A stretch of DNA of 64,000 bases from assembly GCA_013265495.1 (NCBI GenBank), contig MU058065.1:3327003-3391002 (forward strand), given 5' to 3'. Each line of letters starts with the position of its first letter. The stretch's first letter is position 1. Shown one piece after another: positions 905 through 60,415 of the stretch. A model generated the notes under the pieces. That model had not been told where the DNA came from and ran no database searches. It saw only the letters and a list, made by a program, of their open reading frames with translations. This DNA comes from Vicugna vicugna (taxonomy: Eukaryota). Made by a program: the position numbers and the translations under genes.

Positions 905-1456
905 TCAAAGTAACCCCAGAAACCTGTGTAGCATTGGCACAAAGGTTGTCGCACAGATGCCAACCGACGTATAGGTGACGAACTTGTAAGGCACTTCGAT
1001 CTCCAGTCTCCGCCGGGCCTCCTTGTTCCTGGTGACCACCTTGAACCAGGAGTATAACACTTGCAGCGAGAGAGTTCGTGCCAGCTGACGAACCAGGAGG
1101 GTCAACGCGATTCCCACAACGAATCTGGCCAGACTCGAAACTAACACGTCCATGGTGAGCGGTGGGATGTTCTGAACAACAGGGAGCGATTCCGCGGGCT
1201 CGGACACCAGCTGGAAAAAGTGATTGATCCAGAATCCTATGATCATCCCAGCCCCGGAGGCCAGGATGGTGGTGGTGTCTGCTCTGGTGGGGCTGTAGCA
1301 CTCAGACATGGGGTAATTGTAACTCAAGAAGAAGAGCACCACTATGGCGCATACAGGGAAGAGGGGGCTGGCCGAGTCCAGGCGGTCGATTAGGGTCCAG
1401 GCAGGGTAGGTGAGGACAATGAGGACCGCGGTCATCAGGACGCCACCCAGCACATC
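905..1456 (-). CDS. SGPP2: SGPP2 last exon (exon 5) coding part, 183 aa plus TGA
   Basis: pyrimidine tract + gcAG|GATGTGCTGGGT; DVLGG...EIEVPYKFVTYTSVGICATTFVPMLHRFLGLL*; completes motif C3 (H-TVL-D). Confidence 0.97.
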   Translation of the reverse strand, partial: DVLGGVLMTAVLIVLTYPAWTLIDRLDSASPLFPVCAIVVLFFLSYNYPMSECYSPTRADTTTILASGAGMIIGFWINHFFQLVSEPAESLPVVQNIPPLTMDVLVSSLARFVVGIALTLLVRQLARTLSLQVLYSWFKVVTRNKEARRRLEIEVPYKFVTYTSVGICATTFVPMLHRFLGLL

Positions 1457-11416: not shown

Positions 11417-11499
11417 CAAGAAAGAAAGAAAGAAAAGAAAGAAAGAGAGAAAGAAAGAGAGAAAGAAAGGAAGAAAGAAAGAAAGAGAGAAAGCGAGAG

Positions 11500-11530
<31 letters not shown>

Positions 11531-11646
11531 GAGAAAGAAAGAGAGAAAGAAAGAAAGAAAAGAGAGAAAGAAAGAGAGAAAGAAAGAAAGAAAAGAAAGA
11601 AGGAAGGAAGGAAGGAAGGAAGAAAGGAAAGGAAGGAAGGAAGAAA
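11417..11646 (+). repeat. Compound polypurine microsatellite (GAAA/GAGA/GGAA)
   Basis: about 230 nt of almost only A/G. Confidence 0.95.
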
Positions 11647-23060: not shown

Positions 23061-25335
23061 TACTTTTTTAAAATTTTCCGTGGGATTTACATGTACAGTC
23101 AAGGTTGAGAACCACCAGCATGTGGAGAATGTGAGGGGTCCAGGGGAGAAGCAGGCCATCTCAGTTGGATTGATCCAGGGGGTACACACTAATTATAATA
23201 CTGATCACAGCCAGTAATCAGAAGCTCACCTGTCTGTCTCTGTCAATAGACTCGGACACTCGGGAGGGTGAGGTAGGTTTTGTCTGTCCCAGGCTCTTCC
23301 AGATCTAGATCCAAGTCTGACATCTTGCAAAAGCTTATAAAACTACCAGTCCCTAATTTAACCCCATCTTATTATGAAAACCAACCGTTGCCTTCTGCTA
23401 CTAGAACTTATGACCATCACACCCTGGGCTGTGCCTCTGAGCCTAGAGCCTGACTCAGACCTCCGCCTGAGTCAGGGTCTCAGGTATTTATGAAATAAGA
23501 CTACACATGGGAAAGAAGTCCTGGGCAGTGATGGTGCAGCAGGATGGGGGTGGAAGGAATAGTTACTTCTGTCCCTTGTTTCAGCTTCTTCTGGGACAGA
23601 TGCTCCAAGTGAGTGGCCAGACCCGCTACTTGCATCTCAGTGAGAGGCTTCAACGATCTGCCCCACAAATTTCCACTTCTGCATCCGATAACTCGCTTTT
23701 AAAACTAAAGACGTGTAGCTGGATTTTTACTTGGGTGAGTTTTCCATACCCTCTATTCGTGTCTGCAGCTTCACATTCCCGTGTTTACTTTGGTTTTCAT
23801 TTTAACCTGACTTCCTAAGATCATTGTTTATTAAAACCTATGGAAATTAAAAAGTAGCCTCAGATAAAAGAAATACCCAAACACCCGAGAGAGAGTTCTG
23901 CTTCATTCCGTAGCTAAATCTGTGGACATAATTTGGAGAGGACCTCTTATAGTGAGGAGCAGCGGCGTAGCACATTAGGAATGTCTTCCTCCCCTTTCAC
24001 CCTTTCTGTCTTAGAGGCCATGAGTCACAGCATGCAATGGGACCGGGACAGCAGGGACGTGTCTTGGTAGGTAGGTGGTAATTGCTCCCGTTGTATTTTC
24101 AAGATCTGGGCCCCCTTCACCCGGGCAGCGCCCCAGGATCAGGGTGGGTGCAAAACCAGCAAGAGCACACACAGGCATGGTCAGAGCTGGGGTTTATTTC
24201 AAACTCGGACATTCTGTTCGTCACGGAAAATTTCTACATTGATTTTGATTTTTTTTTCAACTATTGCATTCAAGTCACGTATCTTGATCCCCGAGTTGTC
24301 TGGCGCCCCTTCAATTTCATGCCTCACTTGCCTCACCCTAGGCCCAGCCCTGACTTCACTCACCTCCCTGCTTTCCTTTGAGTTAGAATTTGTCTTTTAA
24401 GAGGAAAGCATGATCTTGCTCTCTGACTCTCATGCACCCATAAACCTTCTTTCTCTGGGTTTACTTCCTCCCAGATCTCTGCCTCTGCCCATTTTGACAA
24501 ACTTTCTCCCTCTATCTGTTTACCTGTGTGGCTTCTTCCTTCCACCCTCTCCCCAGTTCACCAACATCAGACACCAGGAGGAGAAACAAGAGGGCCAACG
24601 AAGGCTGGCTTTCCCCTCCGAGGTCCTTTGCTAATGCCATTCTTGAGCCTCGTGGGAAGAGTTAACGCTATTAGCAAGGGCGTGTTCCTTTTCAAAGAAG
24701 TCTTTCTTGCACCAGTTATGATGATAAATAGTGCCTGTGGCAAACTGTGGCCAGCCTGATGCTCTGGATCATCCAGGCAGCTCGTTGGCACACCAGGAAA
24801 TGGAACTGAGTCATTTTAATTGTGCTAATTCCTGGAAAAATTCCTAATACGGTAAAAGGGTGGACAGATCTTTAAGTGCAAGCCCCAGTATGGAAGGAAG
24901 CATTTTGACCTGGTGGGACCGTACCCTGCAGGGACAGCTGATACACCTGCACTTCAGGCCCATGACTGTGAGGAATTAAGTGGGGATCTGCACTGACTCA
25001 CTCGCATCCCTGACCCTGGGTGTTTTCCTGCACTGCCTGCTGTATCACCAGTAAACCAACACCCAATAAATGAGCTGAATCTCCATTGCTGTTCTAGCCA
25101 GTCTTCAAAGTCATGAGAACCTAGCCCAGCTCAGCCTCTGGAATATTATCTTAATGATTCATTACTGTTATTATACATGTGCCATAAGATAATTATTACT
25201 TAATTCAATGGCCTGATGGGAACTATAACTACATGTGCAAATAGCTTTATAAACACATCGTGTGAGGAACACCCTGACACACAGGCTACACTACTATTCA
25301 GATAATCATCCCAAGACCTGCCCACAAAGACTTAC

Positions 25336-25425
25336 CAGGACCGTGTGCATCCCAGTGTAAAGTCTGCTAAGACACACCAAGGTGGAGAACAGCACAGCCA
25401 ACATCAATCCAAAAACAAATGGATA
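25336..25425 (-). CDS. SGPP2: SGPP2 exon 4 (90 nt, 30 aa), start of PAP2 motif C3 (SRLYTGMH)
   Basis: gacAG|TATCCA...GTCCTG|GTAAGT; YPFVFGLMLAVLFSTLVCLSRLYTGMHTVL; too short for the ORF track, read manually. Confidence 0.96.
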
Positions 25426-26149
25426 CTGTCGGGGTGGGGGTGGGGGGAGAAGAGAAAACAAGAAATTAGATCATGCTCAGACTCGTACAATTTGATGCTG
25501 TAGAAGGAAATAGGATTCCTGACCCAATAACTGCCAGTCTCCAACTCTCATTCCCTCAGCCAGCACTCTGATGATCTAAAACCACTTGCAAAATGGGAAA
25601 ACCAAGGAAACAGAAGGGGCAGATGCCCAGGAATATAGTTCTGGAGAGAAGTTTGACAACATCTTGATATGCCAATAAGACAAAGTAGAACCTGACTTTA
25701 AGAGTGATGACCATAGCTTTTTTGCTGGAAGTTTTAGGGGGCAGATATTTTTATTTCTTCCTATTCTTAGAGTAAGTCTTGTGAAATCTACAGTATTTCC
25801 AAGAGGCAAGGTGGATGGACAGTGCTACTACAATTTGGAAGTCCAACCAGCTACTTCCCCATCATCTGCTATGGTGATAAAGCTTGGCAACAATTGGCTT
25901 CCTGAGGAAGCCCCAAGCTAAGACTGGGCATATGTCATAGATACCAGGGCAAAAGCCCAGACTTTACTGAATCTCGACATCTGCAGGTGGGTAAGAAAAG
26001 CAGCTGGAGGAATCTGGCTAATGCTGAGTCATGGAAGGAACATACGGATATTCTGTTTATGAACTAGACGTAGAGATATAATTGCTTCAAGTATTAATGT
26101 CTGAGGTCTTCCATGGTGATTAGAGTAAAGATAGAGAACTGTCTATATT

Positions 26150-26400
26150 ATGTGAAGTGCTTTTTAGTCACTACCTCATTTAATCTTCACACAACCCTAT
26201 GAAGTAGGTTTTATTGTTAGCCCCGTTCTACAAATGAGGAAACCCCTGGCCTGAATTTAGCACACGGATGCTTGCCTATCAATCATCCCATTTGATCCTC
26301 ACAACAGGAGCCATGGCTCAGAGACTTGCCCAAGGTCACACAGCCAGTAGTGACAGTCAGAACCAGCAGCCACATCTTCTGAGTCCAAGTCCGGTGTGTT
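26150..26400 (-). mobile_element. MIR fragments
   Basis: 'ctcatttaatcttcac...gttctacaaatgaggaaac', 'acttgcccaaggtcacacagccagt'. Confidence 0.7.
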
Positions 26401-27016
26401 TTTTCCAACGTAACATTTGAGTACAGGAACACATGGTTGTGTAGCCTTTCTTAAGATTTACCATTAACTGGGTCTTTGATTTTAATCGAAAACATGTTAA
26501 AAATTAATGAGCTAATGCATTCAGAAATTACAGCCTAGGTATTAGCCTGAATACATTTATATAAATAAACCCATTTTTAGATCTACTTATAAGAAAATAA
26601 CCCAAAAGCTAAATATATTTATCATTAAAAATTAAATAGGAAAGAAGTCCATAGTAACTCAGGCCTTAAGAAATCTGTTGCGTCATGTGAGCTATAAAAA
26701 GTTTTTAAAGAAGGGCCGGGTGGCGTATAAGTGATTGTTGTCACTGTCCTGCAGTCAGCCACCGCTTGCTGCTGTTTTCCTAAGAGAAGCATGTTTGCAG
26801 GGTTCTCTGGATGCTGACAGCTGCCCAGTGTGGGCCAGTGTCGCGGACTATGTCCTTCTGGGGCAGATGGCACTGGGTATAGCACAGAAGCCTGCATTTA
26901 GTTGATTCAGGCAGAACTGAGGAGCTCAGACATTGTTTGGTCCTGGCATGACATTTAAGTTAAGTTACAGCAAAAGATTACACCTAGTTGATGTATTCCT
27001 GATGCCTGTCCCTTTT

Positions 27017-27133
27017 CCATATTCCATCATTGCTCACTTCCGGAGTTTCACAACAGGAGGGGAGAAGGGGCGGGGCGACTTTAAGATACGCTTGGCCACC
27101 TGGCCAATACACATCACCAACTGCATAACCAAA
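27017..27133 (-). pseudogene. Partial diverged duplicate of SGPP2 exon 3 (acceptor plus first 104 nt) with an in-frame TGA
   Basis: ungapped match to 28158-28274 with 14 mismatches in 117 nt by manual alignment; LVMCIGQVAKRILKSPRPFSPPVVKLRK*AMMEYG. Confidence 0.93.
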
Positions 27134-28081
27134 CCCCCGGTGACCAGGTAGAAGAATGCAGAGGTGGAGCCAGAACCTGACCCTAATCTTGTCCTCTTCC
27201 AACCGCATCAGGCTGCCTCCCCTACTTCTGTGCAACCTGAACACGGAACGTCCCTGGGTTTCTGACATAAAGGGGCAGGAGAAACAACACTGTCCTGTAT
27301 GTACAAGACGGCTAGAGTTAATAAAATCCAAATTTCCCAACAGGTAAAAGGTAAAATTGATTAAGTTAAGTGCAAAATTAGAGCAAGATTTCTCAGGTAG
27401 GAGAAACAAATCTTTACTGCAGTAATAATGTAACTCTTAACAGGTCTTACTGTAATTGGATTTCAGCTGATATTAAGTGAAATTCTTCTATTTTCAACAT
27501 TTATTAATCTCCTGTCATTTAGACAGCTTTTTAGACAATGCGGAATGATTATTTCTATGGTTGAGCCCCAACCAGGGGCAGAGGCATCCTTGGGGGTAAT
27601 TGGTGCACAGACACTGTTTTTGCCTTGGGCCCAGGGGAGTCTAGCTGGAGGACTGGGTGACATCATCTCAGCCCTGGAGGATCATTTACGAGGATCATAA
27701 ACTCCTTGTGTCTGTTGCAAACAGACGATGAGGGCACCGATTCAAGTGCCTCTAGTCTGGCAGCTCAGGGTGGTAATTTTTCTGCAGGCGGAGACCACAC
27801 ACCCTGGTTCCCTGACAGTCTGTGTCATGTTTGTTGTGCTCTTATCATTATGAGTGGTGTCCACTTTCACTCTGGGGCACAACCTGATTTGGATACTAAA
27901 TCATACAGTCACTTCATTTATGAAGAAATTGTCACTGACCACTCAGTGAGTTTTAGTTCCCCTGGTCTTTATTTCATAAGCCTCAAAATCCCTCAGAAAA
28001 AGATAATTCTGAAGGGAAAGCCCTCTTGGTCCCTTGTCATACGGACAGGGTTACGTGGGAGGAAGAGTGCAGTCGCCTCAC

Positions 28082-28261
28082 CTGGTATCTGTCCATGCTA
28101 GAGATGAGGAGCGTGAAGGAGATGGTGGTGGCCGCCATGGCGTGGGTGGACGGCATCCCATATTCCATGATCACTCTCTTCTCCAGTTTCACAACAGGAG
28201 GGGAGAGGGGGCGGGGCCACTTCAAGATATCCTTGGCCACCTGGCCAATATACATCACCAA
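28082..28261 (-). CDS. SGPP2: SGPP2 exon 3 (180 nt, 60 aa) with PAP2 motifs C1 (KDILKWPRP) and C2 (PSTH)
   Basis: ttttgcAG|TTGGTG...[71 protein letters not shown]. Confidence 0.97.
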
Positions 28262-28514
28262 CTGCAAAACCAAAAGACTGAGGTAAGTCTAAGCAAAGGA
28301 GCAAAATGAATAAACTCCTAGGTTTCGTGAGTTTATTTGGGGGTTCCCTGTTTGTTGGCTGGAGTCACCTTTCCCTCTGACCCGGCTGCCTACTGGGAAG
28401 GCCTTGTAGCATGATATTTTAGTTGGTAGAAAGAGAAAGAAGCCTTCTGGATTGCAGAGGGTCCTGGGCAACTAGGATATGACATTAATACATGTCTTAT
28501 TTACTCTAGTCATA

Positions 28515-47149: not shown

Positions 47150-47413
47150 GACTTCTTAAAGACAACATTCCTTCTTGATCTTGTAAGGGGCCACATGGCA
47201 CGTAGATCTGGATGATGTAAACTGTCAATAATATGTCGTTTGATGTACAGCCCTCTGGCTCAAAAATCTTATATAACTGCGCCCTGATGTCTAACGAGTA
47301 GAGTGGTGCTCAGAGCCTTCTGAGATACTCTTCCCGGGTGATAATCCTCAGATTTGGCTCAGGTCAAATTTTCTATTTCTTTCATAGATCGACTCATGTA
47401 TTTTTTGTTGACA
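47150..47413 (+). mobile_element. ERV1 (MER34-like) LTR 3' part ending in TGACA
   Basis: TATA-like 'cttatataactg', 'agagccttctgaga', 'cctcagatttggctca..aaattttctatttctttc...ttgttgaca'. Confidence 0.55.
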
Positions 47414-47518
47414 AGACCTAATTCTACAGATTTTTATGCTCAAGTCAAATTTTCTATTTCTTTCATAGATAGACTGATTAATTTTTTGTTCGCAAGACCT
47501 AATTCTACAGATTTTTAT
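47357..47518 (+). repeat. 81-bp tandem duplication (2 copies)
   Basis: 47357-47437 and 47438-47518 are near-identical; also visible in the ORF track as a repeated AQVKFSISFIDRL. Confidence 0.95.
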
Positions 47519-49570
47519 GCCCAGCTGCTCTCACAGTGGAGATGGAGAGCTGGCGTGAGACCAGTTACCCTCTCGTACAATCTCATCATTTTAAGAAGCA
47601 AGTGCATTTTCACCTTCATTTAACTTTTTTCAGACTTGGCTGTGGAGCACCTAGATGTAGTTTAGGGAACAAGGTATTACTGGTGGTAACTACTGAATTA
47701 TGCTCACAGTTACAAGACCACCAAAGGAAAAAGACTCCAAGTGAAGACCTAAGTTTGAATCTGTAAAAATACAGGATTCAGAAGCCTGAAGTTTTAGGAG
47801 ATGCCTTCAGAGGGTTACTATGCTCGTCTTCTTGCTTGGATCAACCTGTAGTGTTTAAATACACAGAAGCCCCGAATTTCAGGTTGCAAAGGATGAAAAA
47901 TGCCCAGGTGACCACAAAAGACTATTGAATGTTGTCTAGGTTTGATTTGGGTGTCCCTTCACCTTGGGTTTTCTAGGAGAATTTCTACCACAAAAACTCT
48001 GTTCCACTTACCAACAAAATTTCCGAACCCTATGCATGACACTTTATATTTTAATCTTAAAGGTAACACACTAAAAAGTCTCTAGGTGGGTTTCTACCTC
48101 TTTTACAAATGTTCCTTAAAATATATTCCTCATGAATATATATACATATATTTATAAGGTTACACAAAATTAACAGCTATAAGAGAGCTAGATAATAGAT
48201 CAGCACAACCTTAAACATCCTTTTAGGCAGCAAAGATGTCTTAAATAAAGACAGGCACCTGGTTTTCTGAAACTCAGGCTCTTGACAGAGTTTTAATGAT
48301 TTAATCCTTTCAGTGTTAAGGGTACACCTTTCTGATTGTCCCATAGGAAATAGTCTAGCATTCTTTGTATTAATAGACTTATTTTTTTTTCTAAGCATAA
48401 AACCCAGCCCTATACATTCGAAAAGGTTTCTACAGTACAATTTAGGGTTAAATTTCTGAATCGAGCCCCAGTAGGCAAAAACCTCAAAGAGCACGTAGCT
48501 TGTTTGGAATGTTTACCCAAGTCAGTGAGCCCCCTGATCTTTTTCTTTTTCTTTTTTTTTTAAATGAATTCTCATGAAACAGCCCAGTTGTGGTCTTTGT
48601 TGGCTAAAGAAAAATGGAACTGTTCAGTCCATCCCCTTGTGTCCATTCTTTCTAGCTAAATATTTCCCCCAATTATGTACACGAACACTGAAAACTACTC
48701 AGCCTTTATCTCACGTAGCCTGGGTTTAAGACGCCCTTGTGGGGGGCGTGGTCAGGCTGGGATGGGCTCAAGTCTGTCGGCAGCCCCTTTGCAGGTGTGC
48801 CATGGATTGTAGCATAAGCATTCAATCCAGAATTTAACCTTCTCCTTTGACTGCACCTTCTATTATAGCCTAAGAAAGAAATCAGCTCTCCTATTTCACT
48901 CATTTAGCCTTTATTTGTGGACCAGTGTTAGTTTAAAAAGAAGTCAGATTACTGCTGCTCATAAGTTGCTAATTTCCAAATTAAAGAGTTTTGGGAAAAA
49001 CCTTCAGAATATCACTTCTTAACCCCTAGAGTCAAATTGCTACGTATTTGAAAAACATTTTCAAATTGAACAAAACATTTTTTTCCCTTCTGATTTCAGT
49101 GCCTGTGAATGCCAGAAGAAATTTAATTTCAAAAGGAACAAAAACCTAACATCTTTTTCTAGTTAAATCTGAGCATATGCAATGCAAACAATGGATTTAT
49201 ATGCATGCACGCACACACACGCATGAGCGCACACACACACGGAAGCTCAGAGGAAGACTGTGTGCTTGATGTTTGCCATTGCCATTTGTCTGGACTAGGA
49301 GAGCCCTGAACCCTCACCAAACCCCACTGTCCCTTGGTTTGCATTTGCAAGGCCAAGCGATTCCTAGTGACTCGGAACTGTTGGTCCACCCAATGAAGGG
49401 TTTAAGGACTTTTTTTCAGAGAAACGCTAACTTTTGTTCCTCAAAGCGACCCCAGGAAGTCTGGAAGGAGCAAACCCAGTCAAGCTGTGTGGGGATCACC
49501 TGGAGGAAATTGTAGAGAACTGAATGCATGGTTGAAGGCAGAACATATGATTATTAAAGATGGAATATCT

Positions 49571-57040: not shown

Positions 57041-57981
57041 TTGAAGTATTATTATCCCAATCTATAAAATGATGAAAATGATACTAACCCATTGTTATGA
57101 AGATCCAATAAAAAAAAATGATCATAGATGCCAATAAAAGATGTACAACAGGTCAGAGGAACAATTATGATTGTGATGAGAAAGTGGTTAGTGTAACCAT
57201 AAACTCTGCCAAGCTACTTCAGGCAGTATGACTCACCCCTAATATGACAAATTATTTTTAAAAGCAATAAAACCTGTTGAAATTTCATCCAATGACAACT
57301 GTCAAATTAATATAAAATTTGACGAGAGGTCTGGCATTCTTGAACACAGTTGCCTGCCAAAGAATTTTGGGTGAGATAAGATGTTTAAAGTTAGGCGACT
57401 TTAAGCTCTACCCCTTATATAATTATATAAGTAGTAAATTATATATAAGTATAAGAAATAACATCTCTTTATCCTCGCCTCTTGAAGAGGCAGCCACTAA
57501 TTTGGGGATATCCCTTACAGGAGAGAGGCTACCTCAGCAGGAAGCTGCTTACCCAAAAGAATCTCACCCATCTCCACCCCTCCTTCCCTCCCGACTCCCA
57601 ACACCATCAGGAATTTTCCTTCCCTTCCCCCACCTTCAACACTGGAGCCAGCCAAGCCTCTCCCACTATTATCTCAGCAGCAGGGCACAGAGCAACCACC
57701 TTCCCACCTCTCAACCCAGCAGCCCCCCCACCTCTCTCAATCCCCCAACCCCTCTACCCGCCCAACCCAACTCCCAAGCTCAACCTCCAACTCTCTCTAC
57801 CCACCCCCAAACTCTACACCCGCCTCTCTAACCTCTACCTCTCCTCTCTCTCAACAGCTACCTGTCCCCTGCCCCACCTCTACCCTCTAACCTTCTCTCT
57901 TCTCCCCTCCATTCTTGGAACCACACTGCTGCACCGATACAGAGCATGGGTACCTTGTGGACCTGGCCATTCACCCATGTG

Positions 57982-58083
57982 GGGTTTGTTTGTTTGTTTG
58001 TGTTTAGAGGAGGTACTGGGGATTGAACCCAGGACCTTGTGCATGCTAAGTGTGCACTCTACTGCTTGAGCTATACCCTCCCC
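57982..58083 (-). mobile_element. Vic-1-like SINE, short form
   Basis: 'ggaggtactggggattgaacccaggacc...gagctataccctcccc'; TSD-like attc(a/g)cccat flanks. Confidence 0.88.
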
Positions 58084-60256: not shown

Positions 60257-60415
60257 AACCCATACGATGACCAGTCTTTTGGATAAATAAGTATCAATAT
60301 TCCAGTGAGTGAACGGAAGAAATGTGATGTAGAACACTTCTTGACCCATAGCGGCTGAAAATCTGAACAGATAATAGTAGAAATAATTCTTCACAACGTA
60401 CTTCTGTACATAAGC
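60257..60415 (-). CDS. SGPP2: SGPP2 exon 2 (159 nt, 53 aa)
   Basis: tctAG|GCTTAT...TGGGTT|GTAAGT; translates AYVQKYVVKNYFYYYLFRFSAAMGQEVFYITFLPFTHWNIDTYLSKRLVIVWV, recognisable as SGPP2. Confidence 0.96.

Follow-up and report, generated by a model that had tools for sequence, protein, structure and literature searches.

Does the broken second copy of an exon that lies in intron 3 of the camelid SGPP2 gene do anything for its bearer, or is it debris? The question arose from a first-pass annotation, made from the letters alone, of the stretch of DNA analyzed here (hereinafter the window: 64,000 nt of Vicugna vicugna, assembly GCA_013265495.1, contig MU058065.1, positions 3,327,003 to 3,391,002). 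It proposed that a partial duplicate of exon 3 serves as a poison or alternative terminal exon tuning the level of S1P phosphatase, with a dead relic as its fallback. Camelid SGPP2 intron 3 does hold a real 117-base broken copy of the front of exon 3 (Table 1). As to its meaning, the fallback, together with the restriction to camelids, fares better than the main proposal: the copy is probably dead and unused, left over from a short templated insertion of local origin. Nevertheless, its substitutions do not look like plain drift, and a regulatory alternative has to be weighed alongside the splicing one.

The identity of the gene is plain. All 60 residues encoded by exon 3 agree with the Camelus and Vicugna SGPP2 entries, the encoded protein is recovered as a PAP2 family phosphatase in a family search, and across exons 2–5 it differs by one residue from one Vicugna entry and by nine from two Camelus entries, as would fit a South American camelid. 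Exons 2, 3 and 4 measure 159, 180 and 90 nt and are phase 0 throughout; both the phase and the exon ends at 60257, 28082 and 25425 are as originally reported. For the KxxxxxxRP and PSTH motifs encoded by exon 3 we presume the roles customarily given to them. In exon 5, at approximately 1400-1390, the window reads Leu within AIVVLFF where the camelid entries read Pro, which is the single difference from the Vicugna entry and is either a variant or a sequencing error. Two gene models in the databases skip symmetric exons in frame: the Vicugna isoform X2 (345 aa) lacks exon 2 and a dromedary model (244 aa) lacks exon 4. Elsewhere in the gene, an 81-bp unit occurs twice head-to-tail in intron 2 (47357-47520, 91% matched), constituting another small local duplication, and intron 4 contains a purine-rich AAGA-type microsatellite of about 230 bp (11418-11646). 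Furthermore, the plus strand of 57316-58066 is C-rich and G-poor and stays open over long distances in three phases (129-204 codons, rich in Pro, Ser and Leu), and may be part of a decayed retroelement.

Table 1. Coordinates of SGPP2 exons, the intronic copy and the signals predicted in and around it (window numbering).
Feature	Position	Strand	Remarks
SGPP2 exon 5, coding part including stop	905..1456	-	
SGPP2 exon 4	25336..25425	-	90 nt
ATTAAA hexamer	26481..26486	-	background-level: the gene has 1.83 hexamers of this kind per kb; P 0.69 over 634 nt
Donor of the first-pass annotation, TAG/GTGTAA	26978..26986	-	outside the copied tract; 5/9 consensus; U1 duplex -5.1 kcal/mol
Copy	27017..27133	-	117 nt, 14 substitutions, 0 indels; same orientation as source, 1141 nt downstream of it
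Six-substitution cluster	27030..27043	-	predicted overlapping ETS (CCGGAAGT) and AP-1/CEBP (TGAGCAA) site
Cryptic donor GAA/GTGAGC	27032..27040	-	83-nt frameshifting exon, last base 27038; 6/9 consensus; U1 duplex -4.6 kcal/mol
In-frame TGA	27034..27036	-	AGA in exon 3; after 28 codons
GC box GCCCCGCCCC	27067..27076	-	unchanged from exon 3, CpG kept; 24 nt upstream of the composite site
Copied acceptor end	27121..27133	-	AG kept; 8/17 proximal bases pyrimidine, no yUnAy
SGPP2 exon 3, source exon	28082..28261	-	180 nt; carries KxxxxxxRP and PSTH
Source tract	28158..28274	-	13 acceptor bases and first 104 nt of exon 3
SGPP2 exon 2	60257..60415	-	159 nt, phase 0; donor GTT/GTAAGT; translation as in the compared Vicugna and Camelus entries

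Comparison of the window with itself aligns the copy and its source tract without a gap at an offset of 1141 (103/117 identical, 88%; E 5e-36), in agreement with all the coordinates given for the duplicate by the first-pass annotation. A genome search with the copy returned only two matches, namely the copy itself and SGPP2 exon 3. The copied tract covers 104 of the 180 nt of the exon (its 5′ 58%), leaves the donor uncopied and keeps KxxxxxxRP but not PSTH, with the homology stopping at codon 35, two codons short of that motif, as had been noted earlier. Both ends are sharp, as neither extension of the homology is better than random intron: 42% of 3000 random intron windows, along with 19% of shuffles, score as well as the upstream extension, and for the downstream one the figure is 63%. 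No target-site duplication was found around the copy. The flanks each have a single match in the genome, in a search that skips very common words, and further copies of exons 2, 4 and 5 were not seen in the window; thus, no 1141-nt repeated unit survives. The element qualifies as an intronic partial exon duplicate: it lies in an intron, outside repeats, and is significantly homologous to one of the exons of its own gene. Titles and abstract openings on SGPP2 held no account of it.

Several other origins were considered and set aside. An assembly duplicate is incompatible with the 12% divergence from exon 3, and a processed retrocopy with the inclusion of intron bases. Derivation from the paralogous exon (53% identity, likely of SGPP1) finds no DNA match longer than 10 nt, and carriage by a repeat is at odds with the single-match flanks. 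Given the sharp ends, the included intron bases, the missing paralog match and the absence of a 1141-nt unit, the simplest origin would be insertion from nearby DNA during break repair; a templated insertion is characterized by being short, copied from a template close by, sharply bounded and free of a target-site duplication, as is the case here. In such a scenario, a DNA break in intron 3 would have been repaired with about 117 bases taken from a template 1.1 kb upstream, whether by end joining or by template switching, such that the inserted piece would never have possessed a full set of exon signals. It would then have drifted, with some of the changes perhaps stemming from error-prone synthesis at its birth.

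It is improbable, although conceivable, that exon 3 instead underwent a larger tandem duplication, giving a once-usable mutually exclusive pair, and that the copy is all that can still be seen of it after its 3′ half, donor and flanks had been deleted or overwritten. The shared orientation, the position in the adjacent intron and the start at the acceptor would suit such an event, as would the symmetry of exon 3 (phase 0-0), by virtue of which a full duplicate would keep the frame; moreover, whole-exon tandem duplication is well described (PMC9013439). However, the remaining 76 bases of the exon have left no trace, nor have the donor and the intron on either side, although flanks of this age should probably remain around 75-80% alike, and the scenario needs two separate deletions.

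The same scenario predicts a past life as a coding exon, for which the copy shows no sign. As stated by the first-pass annotation, the frame is kept for 28 codons, with the peptide it gave, before AGA becomes TGA. The 13 exonic changes are spread 4, 5 and 4 over the three codon positions, and there are 10 replacement changes per 79.3 sites as against three silent changes per 22.7, giving a dN/dS of about 0.95, with a ratio of 0.1 rejected at P 0.0002. Of the eight residues that changed, four fall at positions where at least 98% of 124 homologues agree (the best 120 of 452 matches plus four cluster members). The amino-acid changes are hence neutral and there is no sign of past coding constraint. 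What would be looked for in a mutually exclusive duplicated exon is likewise missing: the copy has 104 of 180 nt, no donor, a TGA at codon 29, a dN/dS of about 0.95 and four altered invariant residues. A stop-free minus-strand frame of 150 codons (26987-27436) crosses the copy in a shifted frame and is likely due to chance; its 95-codon ORF (26987-27271) was tried as a gene and rejected, having no homologue and no family at the cut-off.

Two residues bear on the age of the duplication. Codon 32 of the copy is ATG, equivalent to the Met that exon 3 shows only in camelids: among the 124 homologues (best 120 of 452 matches plus four cluster members), Met32 occurs in seven, all camelid, with Ala in 104. 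This implies that the copy likely postdates that camelid change, although exon 3 may have passed on its Met32 through a later conversion. Phe stands at residue 19 of the copy, as it does in whales, ruminants, horse, pangolin and cat, whereas all seven camelid entries have Leu. This ancestral Phe19 suggests that the copy is older than the split of Camelini and Lamini, dated to about 16.3 million years ago (PMC12337305), though it is a single site and could be a back-mutation. Accordingly, from these sequence comparisons the copy likely arose on the camelid stem, in an ancestor of the living camelids. Host DNA in metagenomes yielded four orthologous-intron loci of 61-75% identity, none camelid-like, and a second exon copy was present in neither of the two inspected. 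Within exon 3 itself, the camelid-only Met (28166-28168) stands four residues ahead of PSTH in the same set of 124 (best 120 of 452 plus four).

We next consider the splicing proposal, in which the piece would serve either as a terminal exon or as a regulated cassette exon of the poison type, 83 or 137 nt long, routing part of the SGPP2 mRNA to NMD or yielding an inactive protein of 153 or 213 residues, these being the predicted truncated products with the copy included. On the signals available in the DNA, we regard this as quite improbable. The acceptor, which had been called intact, retains its AG (27122-27121), but only the last 13 intronic bases were copied, which include neither the branch point nor the greater part of the pyrimidine tract. 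The tract is indeed weaker, as claimed: its proximal 17 bases comprise eight pyrimidines and eight G with an adjoining G run, whereas the four real SGPP2 acceptors have 12-16 pyrimidines, counts matched by only 0.2-13% of YAG sites. Of the 1949 YAG sites in SGPP2, 64% equal or exceed the copy, placing it below the median, and the copy alone lacks a yUnAy or consensus branch point, with yUnAy present in all four real acceptors. Speaking for an exon are the kept AG, an AG-free zone of 54 nt (among the top 3% of YAG sites) and, further up from the acceptor, a stretch with 20 of 24 pyrimidines (top 6%), as well as the largely retained internal sequence of the source exon; the AG-free zone and the pyrimidine stretch count against the relic reading.

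On the donor side, the TAG/GTGTAA that would close a 137-nt exon at 26984 is located as claimed and is weak. The first-pass annotation missed that the A>T change creating the stop also makes a new donor, GAA/GTGAGC, which is nearer the consensus (6/9) and would close an exon at 83 nt. A further in-frame option at 21 nt, CAG/GTGGCC (U1 duplex -7.3 kcal/mol), exists in exon 3 too. The duplexes with U1 formed by the two donors of the copy are weaker than those of all three real SGPP2 donors (-7.3 to -11.6 kcal/mol), and comparable binding is seen at 14-26% of the 3384 GT sites in the gene. Scoring by simple counts and U1 duplex energy, 1056 of the 1246 YAG sites with an equal or greater pyrimidine count have a 6/9 donor 50-250 nt downstream; with around a thousand equal chance pairs in SGPP2, the pairing of acceptor and donor in the copy is thus background. 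Spliceable sequence is reported to arise frequently by chance and to be depleted on the sense strand of introns, with chance exons being both common and unconserved (PMC10760453). For a terminal exon, the ATTAAA adduced as its poly(A) signal is where it was reported, but is of background frequency and expected by chance.

A premature stop more than 50-55 nt ahead of a downstream junction marks a transcript for NMD. The NMD arithmetic of the first-pass annotation holds if the piece is spliced in, as the predicted stop lies 68 nt (83-nt form) or 140 nt (137-nt form) before the exon 4/5 junction, beyond that distance in both main forms, and either form, if made, would likely be degraded. The peptide of the copy is absent from all seven camelid SGPP2 entries compared. 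A search of the copy-frame peptide against longer proteins gave 17 candidates with none at E ≤10, the search being a weak one in that native SGPP2 was also missed. Sequencing runs were consulted for 25200-28500: 20 of the 24 listed contain part of it, 14 DNA or unlabelled runs having 0.89-0.96 of its words, and the word shares of the RNA runs (0.06-0.32) are not counted as evidence. Taken together, the background-level proximal acceptor tract, donors and poly(A) signal and the missing peptide leave the proposed tuning of S1P phosphatase without positive support. Occasional noise-level splicing into NMD-bound RNA would fit a dead relic as well.

The substitutions tell a less ordinary story. Five of the 14 are G/C swaps, as compared to 6% of mismatches (35 of 578) among 33 pairs of repeats within the window (GC-adjusted P 0.003; simulated P 0.004-0.007). 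Seven are packed into 16 nt (P 0.018), and the CpG count rises from one in exon 3 to four in the copy (P 0.046 with CpG decay, 0.32 without). Overlooked by the first-pass annotation, six clustered changes convert the exon 3 bases to CCGGAAGTGAGCAA (27043-27030), forming a predicted ETS site, the CCGGAAGTG of which is unique in the 64 kb on either strand, overlapping TGAGCAA. We take the inherited GC box nearby to be an Sp/KLF site; it is intact, including its CpG, an outcome reached in 7% of simulations with CpG decay and 26% without. The G/C swaps, the clustering, the CpG gain and the composite site all indicate that the substitutions are not plain drift, and thereby stand against the relic.

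The main rival to a dead relic is therefore that it was reused as a camelid-specific intronic enhancer, perhaps inflammation-responsive, combining the GC box with a new ETS/AP-1/CEBP site, with the stop codon and the new GT as by-products of site building. Judged on the sequence, this is unlikely, and no more likely is the stronger statement that selection rebuilt the broken exon copy, through six substitutions in 14 bases, into the camelids' own inflammation-responsive SGPP2 enhancer. In favor of reuse, 6 of the 14 substitutions lie inside a 14-bp composite, which is rare in simulations: with a panel of 48 motifs, a new motif cluster taking up at least six changes appeared in 1-2 of 12000 runs with scattered changes (P about 0.0001) and in 96 of 40000 with clustered ones (P 0.0024), these values being post hoc, as several features were examined and TGAGCAA joined the panel after being seen. 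With the first panel of 30 motifs, the chance of a new motif with at least three changes was 0.011-0.016. The overlap geometry is that of published ETS-CRE and ETS-AP1 sites (PMC3464117), TGAGCAA is a preferred site of FOS-CEBPE (PMC5349851), and SGPP2 is among the TNF-inducible genes of human Caco-2 cells (PMC4263293).

Against it, TGA[CG]CAA by itself is common, occurring 17 times in the window. The CpG o/e of 0.30 over 514 nt around the copy marks an ordinary methylated-type intron, and no CpG island was seen there; methylation blocks ETS binding, and GABPA peaks are found at only 10% of 14,031 human CCGGAAGT sites (PMC3464117). The composite 14-mer has eight copies in the genome as against one for a control sequence; the match of the other seven at the site never exceeds 15 bases, so none is a longer template. 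Two of these seven belong to one repeat, alike at 72% over 441 nt, and another two are in CpG-island-like DNA. Within the window, no template for the clustered changes was found either (21-mer, within 30% mismatch). A strand-coordinated, APOBEC-like change was also tried and dropped, as the bias of the G/C changes, six of seven of which fall on the same strand, is not significant (P 0.15).

Error-prone synthesis at birth offers another account of the clustered changes, one in which the strand bias is likewise not significant. C>G changes have been reported as a signature of REV1 close to meiotic breaks, and the 5 of 14 G/C swaps match these break-repair changes (PMC7615360). The dead relic of a templated insertion remains the probable reading. 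As such it would be ordinary, given that there are thousands of such copies per mammalian genome, and it would be of use only for marking camelids and as a pitfall to bear in mind when reads are mapped or genes predicted. Selection of the clustered changes would make it a rare new regulatory site with its exact ancestral sequence kept next door. Were the enhancer real, that ancestral sequence, exon 3 at 1.1 kb, would make each step of its birth readable and testable, in the setting of an inflammation-responsive gene that controls the level of sphingosine-1-phosphate. Of interest too, if true, would be a regulated poison exon born of a duplicated exon, but it is less supported than the selected cluster.

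Among the closest known systems are the unannotated intronic exon duplicates of Ivanov and Pervouchine (2022), of which human introns hold 4,027 as targets: these too are same-gene exon homologues of more than 80% identity outside repeats and annotated exons (PMC9013439). That some of them are expressed and, on average, conserved counts against the relic. The SGPP2 copy differs in comprising only the 5′ 58% of the exon, with no donor and with a stop codon. Mutually exclusive exons from tandem exon duplication resemble it in the neighboring, same-strand placement and the phase-0 source exon, but it is not full length, its frame is closed, invariant residues are changed and the donor is uncopied. 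Like poison exons and pseudoexons that trigger NMD, it would, if spliced in, introduce a premature stop at a sufficient distance from the last junction; unlike theirs, its proximal acceptor tract and donors are at background. Exonic remnants with cis-regulatory function are, similarly, non-coding remnants of a coding exon bearing factor motifs (PMC2831330), but those keep an old regulatory code after genome duplication, whereas the SGPP2 site would be new and in a young local copy. ETS-bZIP composite sites present the same ETS-CRE and ETS-AP1 overlap geometry, the exact SGPP2 11-mer not being among those given (PMC3464117). Finally, the short templated insertions known as human germline variants, as described, are inverted and come from within 100 bp (PMC8421209), whereas the SGPP2 copy is direct and 1.1 kb from its template; what they share with it is a short copy of nearby DNA, sharp ends, no target-site duplication and no features of retrotransposition.
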